DNA from: a virus
Lineage: Duplodnaviria > Heunggongvirae > Uroviricota > Caudoviricetes
Length of the DNA: 44,374 bases
Reading direction: 5' to 3' (one strand)
IMG/VR virus record: IMGVR_UViG_2534681761_000010
In this document: positions 6,293-7,237 of the stretch, piece by piece
Position numbering within the stretch: position 1 is the stretch's first letter
Layout: each line of letters opens with the position of its first letter
The notes under the pieces: model-generated
Databases searched by the model: none
What the model was told of the DNA's origin: nothing
The model's input: only the letters and a program-made list of their open reading frames with translations
Made by a program: the position numbers and the translations under genes

Positions 6293-7237
6293 TCACAACC
6301 AGCCGACGCTCTCTCGCCATTTATAATTAGTAACTTTATCATTTTCGCTTATTTTTTTAGATATAGAGCGCGGCTCTCTTCCTAGATACTCAGATATTTC
6401 TATCGGGGACAAATCAAAATCAACAAGCATGACTCTAAGTTTTTCCATTTCCTTTAAAGTCCAAGGCTTGCCATAATTTTCATAAAGAGATACCTTATGC
6501 TCCCTGATAGTTCGCTTTCTCTGAGTTTCACTTTCCCTCTGAAAAATCTCGCTTTTAAATTGTGAACGGAACTCTTTACAGAAGTTGTTATCAGTTTTTT
6601 TGTTATATAGATTGCTAAAAATAAGCTGGGATGCCGGGTCTAAATCAGGTGTGTTAATAATGAAAACTTTGACCTTTTCCATATAGGGATATTCAATTTT
6701 ACCCAATATGCTTAATTGCTTTATATTAAAAAAACCTCTCAAATCAAAAGATTTAATGAGCTTTGATTGGATTACACTTTCAATCCTGCTTGCATTTAAA
6801 TAACAGTACTTTGCCATTGGAAGGGCCCATACTACCAGTTGAGGAATATATTTTTCTAATGCAATGCTCTGCCAATCAGTATCAAAGGTTTGGCTTTTTG
6901 CTAGCATGTTTTTCGGCAAATCAGAATACATTGTGGTAGATGCCCATATCTTATAATCATTCGCCAAGGCTTGATAGTATTTTGTGTGGTTATGAATTTT
7001 ATAAGCTGACATGAAGCGATAAACGTCTTCGTCGTGACCAGCGTCGTAAATTGTTCGATTTCCTCTAAGATAACCGTCGTAATGTTCGGTTATCCTTCTA
7101 CCTACATTACAACTTACCCCAACGTAAACCACACGACTGAAAAGTCCTTTATGGACAATAAGATAAACTCCGCTACAGCCAGATTTCCTGGCCTCTGATA
7201 GAGAACCTAAAAATCTCCATTCCATAATTAAATCCAT
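6293..7237 (-). CDS. GIY-YIG nuclease domain protein with C-terminal HTH (free-standing homing-endonuclease-like)
   Basis: N-terminal GVYLIVHKG..VVYVGVSCNVGRRITEH fits the GIY-YIG motif with conserved Arg and His; C-terminal SPIEISEYLGREPRSISKKI is HTH-like; AT-rich codon usage unlike flanking phage genes. Confidence 0.65.
   Translation of the reverse strand: MDLIMEWRFLGSLSEARKSGCSGVYLIVHKGLFSRVVYVGVSCNVGRRITEHYDGYLRGNRTIYDAGHDEDVYRFMSAYKIHNHTKYYQALANDYKIWASTTMYSDLPKNMLAKSQTFDTDWQSIALEKYIPQLVVWALPMAKYCYLNASRIESVIQSKLIKSFDLRGFFNIKQLSILGKIEYPYMEKVKVFIINTPDLDPASQLIFSNLYNKKTDNNFCKEFRSQFKSEIFQRESETQRKRTIREHKVSLYENYGKPWTLKEMEKLRVMLVDFDLSPIEISEYLGREPRSISKKISENDKVTNYKWRESVGWL

Follow-up and report, generated by a model that had tools for sequence, protein, structure and literature searches.

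Is a solitary nuclease gene found between short palindromes in a prophage a selfish homing element, a switchable effector, or the cargo of a mobile cassette? We addressed this question for the IMG/VR record IMGVR_UViG_2534681761_000010, a stretch of 44,374 nucleotides (hereafter the window) that corresponds to a lambdoid (Rac-like) Escherichia coli prophage. An earlier note on this DNA had described, at positions 6293–7237, a gene for a free-standing nuclease with an N-terminal GIY-YIG motif and a C-terminal helix–turn–helix (HTH), bracketed by two 24-bp palindromes, A and B2. Homing enzymes like I-TevI and the Seg proteins of phage T4, a separately mobile cassette, a nuclease whose presence is switchable, and a defense or anti-competitor nuclease were all considered there. 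Our computational analysis points to a single-gene anti-phage or superinfection-exclusion nuclease carried on an exchange cassette with two different ends, the L and R sites, as the probable answer. The mobility of the cassette is very likely. A defense function of the protein, which is argued by association only, is somewhat favored over its absence.

A Cassette Found in Unrelated Contexts

The open reading frame (ORF) at 6293–7237 is real and, as first described, AT-rich. It lies on the minus strand, encodes 314 amino acids (aa), and has a guanine plus cytosine (GC) content of 0.34 at 6501–7000, against about 0.50 (0.49–0.51) in the replication genes to its left. Sites A and B2 are identical at 22 of 24 positions and are indeed in direct orientation around the gene. 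No A/B2-like match with three or fewer mismatches was obtained in shuffled versions of the window. The right end of the unit is, however, not B2 but a palindrome of a second type, B1. The true GIY cassette extends over 1.2 kb (6232–7429), from the L site A to the R site B1, and is the first unit of an array. Its features, and those of the junction that follows, are:

6232–6255, plus strand: L-type site A, GTCCGCTTTGTGCCAAGAGCGGAC, with arm GTCCGCTTT, center GTGCCA, and arm AGAGCGGAC (9-6-9 layout); left boundary of both array and GIY cassette
6293–7237, minus strand: GIY-YIG-HTH ORF, 314 aa, ATG start; the sole sizeable ORF in the cassette
7238–7405, minus strand: AT-rich 5′ untranslated and putative promoter region of 168 bp, which travels with the GIY gene
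7406–7429, plus strand: R-type site B1, GTCCGTTCCTCGCTCTCAGCGGAC, that is GTCCGTTCC-TCGCTC-TCAGCGGAC; true right end of the GIY cassette
7430–7447, plus strand: junction spacer of 18 bp, CTTCAGCTCAGTGATATC, from R site B1 to L site B2
7448–7471, plus strand: L-type site B2, GTCCGCTCTGTGCAAAGAGCGGAC; left end of the neighboring PD-T7-1 cassette

Of 5426 complete E. coli genomes, 294 contain the GIY cassette at 98.8% identity or more; at least four unrelated contexts are represented. Besides the lambdoid slot of the window, the cassette adjoins an e14-like intE at icd as part of a three-cassette array, lies in Ag43/GTPase islands beside a type I restriction–modification (RM) system and DarT (once followed by a pseudogenized small recombinase), adjoins a NACHT gene, and is carried by IncF plasmids. 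A restriction endonuclease is also among its neighbors elsewhere. In BLAST, the matches to the cassette start with base 6232, the first of A, and stop at or just past B1 (7420–7440). The 168-bp region upstream of the gene is unchanged up to the R site in all contexts compared; a simple consensus scan for promoters gave no minus-strand match for the GIY gene.

The same slot of phage mEp460_ev081 has no GIY cassette: the sequence found after B2 in the window comes there straight after a site identical to A. A related prophage (L012) carries in this slot a 96% identical recombinase with different cassettes on both sides, and no GIY cassette. None of 50,697 deposited phage genomes contains it. The gene is thus accessory and not core, which answers the refuting condition of the earlier note, conserved core content in all relatives.

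Homologs of the GIY gene are also encountered beyond E. coli. In Vibrio parahaemolyticus (L074–L077), a 61% identical homolog is a classical chromosomal integron cassette, with attC (VPR-type) repeats of about 128 nt, and stands among acetyltransferase, glyoxalase, and ParE/Phd cassettes. The Brenneria homolog belongs to an L/R array within a region resembling integrative conjugative elements (ICEs), and that of Undibacterium lies beside HEPN/RES and HNH genes.

Two Site Types with Different Centers

A looser search pattern retrieved five sites in the window (6232, 7406, 7448, 9389, and 11619), where about one is expected by chance; a position weight matrix gave no match in 384 kb of shuffled sequence. 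The sites fall into two types with the consensus sequences GTCCGCTyT-GTGCCA-rrAGCGGAC (L) and GTCCGyTyy-TCGCTC-AnAGCGGAC (R). They share a layout of 9-bp inverted arms (GTCCGCTyy and rrAGCGGAC) around a 6-bp asymmetric center. Across 84 L and 82 R sites, the centers are near-invariant within a type and differ between types at four of six positions (GTGCCA vs. TCGCTC). The two arms of a site vary independently in the same sample, with no compensatory changes: for 18 of the 20 arm pairs, the observed pairing was equaled in 115 or more of 1000 shuffling trials, the exceptions being L 9–16 (18/1000) and R 7–18 (30/1000). In our reading, the palindrome therefore reflects a pair of inverted half-sites bound by protein on duplex DNA, rather than a hairpin of the attC kind.

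The position of the crossover can be deduced from linkage. When the same cassette is followed across contexts, positions 1–9 of the L site track the left flank and positions 10–24 the cassette, and positions 1–15 of the R site track the cassette and 16–24 the right flank. In a pairwise survey of L sites that share the left flank and differ on the right, the mismatch frequency is 0–0.05 at positions 1–15 and 0.56–0.60 at positions 16–17. This switch at the 6-bp centers of both site types is the signature of a crossover in the overlap of a tyrosine recombinase core site. The palindromes, described at first sight as resembling recombination sites, behave as such; cassettes are cut inside them.

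The spacing between cassettes is also constrained. Of 28 short junctions, 26 have an R-to-L gap of exactly 18 bp, with the loose consensus CTTCAGCTCAGTTAGCTT (seen at 7430–7447 in the window and in L004, L006, L007, L038, and L087–L091), which puts the R and L centers 42 bp, or four helical turns, apart. Otherwise, a recombinase module of about 660 bp stands in place of the gap. This fixed phasing hints at a higher-order complex. We surveyed sites linked to recombinase genes in loci from IMG/VR and in one genome per species. Next to recombinase genes at least 86% identical, the sites alternate (L...R), nearly all of them on the recombinase strand; some loci (e.g., L089, L091, L093, and L095) carry sites on the opposite strand too.

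Several other interpretations of the sites were considered and rejected. Folded attC-like sites are ruled out by the lack of compensatory covariation in the arms, which leaves duplex binding sites as the preferred interpretation. An invertible, phase-variable cassette, one form of the switchable presence proposed in the earlier note, was rejected as well: no copy with the gene inverted between L and R was seen, nearly all sites next to closely related integrase genes point the same way, and in the five E. coli contexts where both sites were detected, L and R change neither strand nor order relative to the gene. Exceptions are one head-to-head arrangement in Brenneria and sites on the opposite strand at a few other loci. 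An integron-like unit of gene plus junction mobilized by L × L recombination only is incompatible with the variation by context of the right part of the R site and of the spacer, which implies that both cassette ends are used. The sites are not intrinsic terminators, as no T-run follows them and their arms show no hairpin covariation; a terminator scan gave a single terminator-like hairpin, at the 3′ end of the GIY gene. Finally, a hybrid "empty" site is ruled out because the smallest lambdoid slot still consists of L, 224 bp, and R.

Two single loci deserve mention. On plasmid NZ_AP022179.1 (L168, locus 2486–4008), an insertion sequence of IS110, a family known to target specific repeated sequences, interrupts the GIY cassette's L site between its positions 17 and 18. 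In Brenneria goodwinii (L078, 3953–6992), two L sites stand head-to-head around a 513-aa ORF and the GIY homolog; the sole R site in this interval is degenerate, and an inversion or the fusion of arrays may have produced the arrangement.

A Small Tyrosine Recombinase Nested between R and L

The array of the window comprises four units at 6232–11642, located between a DUF977/LygF gene and hok: the GIY cassette, PD-T7-1, a tyrosine recombinase of about 200 aa, and a 326-aa ORF. Their order is L (A, 6232), GIY gene, R (B1, 7406), 18-bp spacer, L (B2, 7448), 449-aa gene, R (C, 9389), recombinase gene (9446–10054), L (D, 10073), 326-aa ORF, and R (E, 11619). The 4.4-kb segment 5700–10100 is 100% identical in many E. 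coli chromosomes. The features to the right of B2 are:

7785–9134, minus strand: PD-T7-1 gene, 449 aa (PADLOC PDLC04073, E = 7e-157); neighboring cargo
9389–9412, plus strand: R-type site C, with a degenerate right arm, adjoining the integrase
9416–9454, plus strand: hairpin with a perfect 15-bp stem, in which the recombinase gene's Shine–Dalgarno (SD) sequence (GGAGA) and ATG (9452) are sequestered
9446–10054, plus strand: small tyrosine recombinase, 200–202 aa (Pfam PF00589, E = 2e-17), taking the place of the 18-bp spacer between R and L
10073–10096, plus strand: L-type site D, AGCAGCCCTGTGCCATAAGCGGAA; in place of its left arm stands the 3′ arm of a hairpin that resembles a terminator (10061–10082)
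10414–11394, plus strand: 326-aa ORF, cargo of the fourth unit, which spans 10073–11642
11619–11642, plus strand: R-type site E, right end of the array

The recombinase shows the catalytic set R53, H150-x-x-R153, H176, and Y185. In relatives down to 54% identity, H150 is conserved in at least 90% of rows and the other residues are invariant. It is devoid of most of the N-terminal domain and scores far below the NCBIfam cut-offs for Xer, integron, and Fim-type enzymes: 17.5 bits against 435 and 17.2 against 265 for the integron integrase models, and 27.4 and 19.2 bits against 222 and 221 for the Fim-type invertase models PRK09871 and PRK09870. The gene is present in 1318 of 5426 E. coli genomes and its family in at least 572 species-level genomes. 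At the 10 junctions where both flanking sites were detected, the R site lies 57 bp upstream and the L site about 20 bp downstream of the recombinase gene; the distance from the stop codon to L is 19 bp in the related IMG/VR and genome loci. This R-int-L arrangement is constant in the chromosomes, plasmids, and prophages of Enterobacterales.

The hairpin at the 5′ end of the gene (9416–9454) has a predicted RNA folding free energy of −26.3 kcal/mol (z = −5.6). Stems pairing an anti-SD with the SD, of differing sequence, were recognized by eye in 55–65% identical homologs of Beta-, Gamma-, and Alphaproteobacteria; RNAalifold found no consensus on the automatic alignment, in which MAFFT had misaligned the loops. 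The recurring stems suggest a conserved translational control of the recombinase.

Could the palindromes be mere conserved boundaries, such as terminator-like insulators or patches of short homology, between which cargo is swapped by homologous or Red/RecET-type recombination? Many arrays, those of P2 and mEp460 among them, have no recombinase gene, the 66-bp R-spacer-L junction offers micro-homology usable by phage recombinases, and homologous recombination has been invoked for the turnover of hotspots (PMC9122126). Against this stand the sharpness of the linkage switch across the 6-bp center in both site types and the combination of two near-invariant asymmetric centers with symmetric 9-bp arms, which is the anatomy of tyrosine recombinase core sites. 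The nesting of a recombinase gene between R and L, in constant orientation and at constant spacing, argues in the same direction, and the sites have neither the hairpin covariation nor the T-runs of terminators. We consider such passive boundaries rather unlikely.

A few sequences around the array complete this description. The 326-aa ORF has no match in Pfam, NCBIfam, PADLOC, or PHROG and is, by position, another candidate defense gene. The flank that follows site E (tagaaggttagc) is the same as that following the single cassette of mEp460_ev081. The sok antitoxin RNA at 11954–12128 (Rfam RF01794, 111.7 bits), part of a hok/sok module, directly adjoins the array on its right. A motif GGCACAGrGTArAGC is found 10–25 bp to the left of the first L site in the lambdoid slot, the P2 slot, and an Ag43 island (window, 6205–6231; L002, 2975–3000; L005, 4977–5000), and the array may therefore possess a conserved left-end "platform."

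A Putative GIY-YIG Nuclease with a Myb-Like HTH

The GIY-YIG assignment made in the earlier note does not come out of profile searches: Pfam PF01541 matches residues 22–62 of the 314-aa protein with 15.8 bits (E = 0.017), below the gathering score of 22.6. It is borne out by the alignment of the family and by a structural model. A family search returned 72 clusters of full-length homologs of about 310 aa from Enterobacterales, Vibrio, Aeromonas, Pseudoalteromonas, Thalassotalea, and Undibacterium, and a precomputed PF01541 annotation exists for three of them. In an alignment of 25 homologs (down to 38% identity), V24-Y25, Y38-V39-G40, R48, H52, E153, and N171 are invariant, as is a C-terminal motif W259...E265-x-L267-R268...R287, and G23 is kept in at least 90% of rows. 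The AlphaFold2 (AF2) model built on this alignment (mean predicted local distance difference test score 91.8, predicted template modeling score 0.83) consists of an N-terminal nuclease module (residues ~1–210) with the GIY-YIG alpha/beta fold, a long helix (228–251), and a three-helix Myb/SANT-like HTH (261–302). Alignment and model thus confirm that the protein is a member of the GIY-YIG nuclease superfamily with a predicted C-terminal Myb/SANT-like HTH, and the putative endonuclease is active-looking. Its own family is rare and the HTH an add-on, as a profile search of 1.84 billion representative proteins detected 140 relatives at E ≤ 1e-3, about 60 of which are proteins of 200–230 aa consisting of the nuclease module alone.

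This architecture is also that of I-TevI and the Seg proteins, as the earlier note had pointed out, and a rival reading is a selfish homing endonuclease, which would cut slots or cassettes devoid of it and spread by repair from the nuclease-bearing copy. The resemblance comprises the domain order, with an N-terminal GIY-YIG domain carrying the Tyr/Tyr/Arg/His/Glu/Asn set, a long linker and a C-terminal HTH, as well as the occurrence as a non-essential gene in phage DNA and the patchy presence of the gene. The spacings of the catalytic residues are 13 (Tyr-Tyr), 10 (Tyr-Arg), 4 (Arg-His), and 18 (Glu-Asn) in the GIY protein, and 11, 10, 4, and 15 in I-TevI. Foldseek gives weak full-length matches to phage intron-associated and Seg-like endonucleases (E = 0.003–1; top viral fold matches E = 0.003–0.1, with a large root-mean-square deviation). 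The likeness to homing enzymes is, however, no better than that to UvrC or to a restriction enzyme. The Foldseek matches in the PDB are marginal and of the same kinds, sequence searches of the PDB yielded chance matches only, and no significant sequence match to I-TevI or the Seg proteins was found. The GIY protein differs from I-TevI by an insertion of about 55–60 residues between the Arg/His motif and the Glu (Arg-to-Glu distance 105 vs. 48), and from both by the Myb/SANT-like type of its HTH.

The context speaks against homing. The boundaries of the GIY gene are recombinase sites that also bound unrelated, nuclease-free cargo (PD-T7-1, fun(Z), Old, AbiGi, and Septu), so that the mobility of its cassette needs no nuclease-driven homing. 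Sequence identity ends at the sites, with no co-conversion tracts beyond them, and the family is also found as an ordinary attC cassette in Vibrio. In contrast to the lytic-phage neighborhoods of the homing enzymes, the gene resides in prophages, plasmids, islands, and integrons and, as noted above, in none of the deposited phage genomes. Membership in the I-TevI/Seg homing group is therefore not supported, and a homing function appears very unlikely.

Sister Cassettes Carry Anti-Phage Genes

If the gene is cargo, the other cassettes should indicate what kind of cargo L/R sites carry. The PD-T7-1 cassette (7448–9412) encodes an experimentally validated anti-phage gene (Vassallo et al. 2022, PMC9519451). 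It recurs at 96–99% identity, cut at the sites, in three places: in the same slot in mEp460, in the G-FI (Z/fun) slot of the P2-like Yersinia phage vB_YpM_46, between the tail-fiber genes and FI, and adjoining umuDC in Morganella phage IME1369_01. B2 is the start of the alignments to these three phages. In phage P2 itself, the gene for T5 exclusion, fun(Z), lies between an L and an R site (L084, 15335–17455); the P2 tin-old locus has no L/R sites.

From 31 distinct cassettes, the largest ORFs of 20 were compared with PADLOC together with the GIY and PD-T7-1 proteins (22 cargos). Matches were obtained to PD-T7-1, Old (E = 3e-209), AbiGi, Septu PtuA (1020 bits), and a dCTP deaminase (E = 5e-127), and further ones to a SIR2/ThsA-like protein, a WYL regulator, and an MBL-fold protein; the remaining sampled cargos (about 60%) are unannotated. 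As the identifiable cargo is overwhelmingly anti-phage, the GIY-YIG-HTH protein is most likely a single-gene defense nuclease. Its gene is recurrently co-located with validated defense genes (PD-T7-1 in the window, type I RM/DarT and NACHT elsewhere), and these neighbors point to anti-phage defense. Two independent cassette systems moreover carry it, in every case as a lone gene, which argues for a self-contained function. Among the possibilities of the earlier note, a defense or anti-competitor nuclease is thus the one that we favor, by association.

A role of the gene as a module of the addiction or toxin-like kind, or as an accessory that processes DNA for the cassette system (e.g., nicking to stimulate exchange), is quite improbable: the nuclease is solitary with no cognate methylase, integron arrays often hold stabilizing toxin–antitoxin cassettes (ParE/Phd is near in Vibrio L077), and the HTH could in principle read L/R sites, but the GIY cassette contains no antitoxin-sized ORF, the family also occurs outside L/R systems, and most L/R arrays and all integrase-proximal junctions are without the gene, which is therefore not machinery.

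A Proposed Two-Site Exchange Model

Returning to the single-gene defense nuclease on an exchange cassette, we propose the following mechanism. The recombinase would catalyze the exchanges at both site types, and L would be unable to recombine with R. As identical overlaps are in general required by tyrosine recombinases, L would pair with L and R with R; the different centers suggest cassette exchange between two incompatible sites. This predicts replacement (L × L plus R × R) and insertion or deletion of a cassette plus junction (e.g., A × B2), and not simple excision. The prediction fits prophage L012, with its 96% identical recombinase and other cassettes on both sides in the same slot, and the smallest lambdoid slot, which retains both sites around 224 bp. 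It also fits the published remark that P2 hotspots are never empty (Moura de Sousa 2026). The resident recombinase of about 200 aa would probably exchange, insert, and delete cassettes by crossovers within the centers, as a natural analog of recombinase-mediated cassette exchange (RMCE), and one system may serve the P2 G-FI (Z/fun) hotspot, the lambdoid slot, plasmids, and genomic islands. In the GIY protein, the HTH would hold the enzyme on DNA, and phage DNA entering the cell, if modified or bearing a sequence absent from the host, would be cut by the GIY-YIG domain. What marks this target, a modification or a specific sequence recognized by the Myb-like HTH, is a guess.

Several observations weigh against this proposal. 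On the side of the exchange system, a few arrays have L-L or R-R neighbors or inverted sites. Many arrays, as in P2 and mEp460, do not encode the integrase and would need a supply from elsewhere in the cell; the gene occurs in only 1318 of the 5426 E. coli genomes. P2-like prophages with an empty G-FI slot have no L/R site and are also devoid of a "platform" of about 60 bp on each side, which implies that the platform first arrived in the phage by some other route. On the side of defense, with about 60% of the cargos unannotated, the enrichment rests on a small, non-random sample of 22. The GIY protein has no NCBIfam match, and its best PADLOC match, the candidate PDC-S14 (E = 0.0075), includes no significant stretch. 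A lone nuclease with no methylase or immunity partner also requires some rule to distinguish self from non-self.

Taken as a whole, the proposal is that the L/R sites and the embedded recombinase form an uncharacterized natural two-site cassette-exchange system, by which anti-phage genes move between the P2 Z/fun hotspot, lambdoid prophages, plasmids, and the defense islands of Enterobacterales, and that the GIY-YIG-HTH protein is a new single-gene defense nuclease. In this complete form we advance it tentatively, as somewhat less likely than not.

Comparison with Known Systems

The closest functional counterparts are the integrons. In both systems, a tyrosine recombinase adjoins an array of small, mostly single-gene cassettes bounded by imperfect palindromes, and the cargo is rich in anti-phage genes, the GIY-YIG family being itself a true attC cassette in V. 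parahaemolyticus. Chromosomal integrons of Vibrio were described as banks of defense genes (bioRxiv 10.1101/2024.07.02.601686). The likeness is functional only. Where an integron cassette has a single attC of 60–130 nt, an L/R cassette has one 24-bp site of each type, L and R; these sites show no arm covariation and are probably read as duplexes, not as folded single strands. Upstream regions are part of the L/R cassettes, which can point either way, and the recombinase of about 200 aa is encoded inside the array, between R and L, and not at one end.

Other systems share single traits. The use of two sites with the same arms and different central spacers, favoring swap over excision, is the principle of RMCE with incompatible lox or FRT spacers, a laboratory design of which we know no natural equivalent. 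As in the pdif modules of Acinetobacter, short recombinase sites delimit modules found in many replicons, but pdif sites resemble dif and use the host XerC/D, whereas L/R sites are unlike dif and have a dedicated embedded recombinase. Unlike the targets of Fim-type tyrosine invertases, integrase-linked L/R sites are nearly all in direct orientation on the integrase strand. The Z/fun locus of P2 is close as well: fun(Z) is an L/R cassette at G-FI and PD-T7-1 occupies that slot in the Yersinia phage and stands beside the GIY cassette here. Among GIY-YIG enzymes, R.Eco29kI, T4 EndoII, and the modification-dependent nucleases differ from the GIY protein, which has neither a methyltransferase partner nor a recognized modification-reading domain.

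Implications for the Turnover of Defense Genes

No description of the L and R sites or of the GIY protein was found in the searchable literature. A paper by Nilsson et al. from 2004, whose title reportedly speaks of site-specific recombination, may be prior art for the L/R sites. The L/R system is thus a candidate integron-like site-specific cassette system with a different logic, accompanied by a new candidate defense nuclease.

The studies of hotspots consulted here leave the mechanism of exchange open or invoke cos-proximal or homologous recombination, with no mention of the L/R sites or of this recombinase (Rousset 2022; Moura de Sousa 2026). The mechanism of the fast turnover of defense genes was stated to be unknown (Rousset 2022), and cryptic islands were described as "of unknown mobility" (Moura de Sousa 2026). 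The locus analyzed here offers a testable mechanism for this turnover, with 24-bp sites, a candidate recombinase, and the prediction that L and R do not recombine. It also provides a rule for finding new defense genes, namely anything located between an L and an R site. Genome engineering could benefit as well from a natural exchange system this compact, with two sites and a recombinase of 200 aa. If the proposal is true, the L/R system would supply the mechanism so far missing for the movement of anti-phage genes between the P2 hotspot, prophages, plasmids, and defense islands of Enterobacterales.

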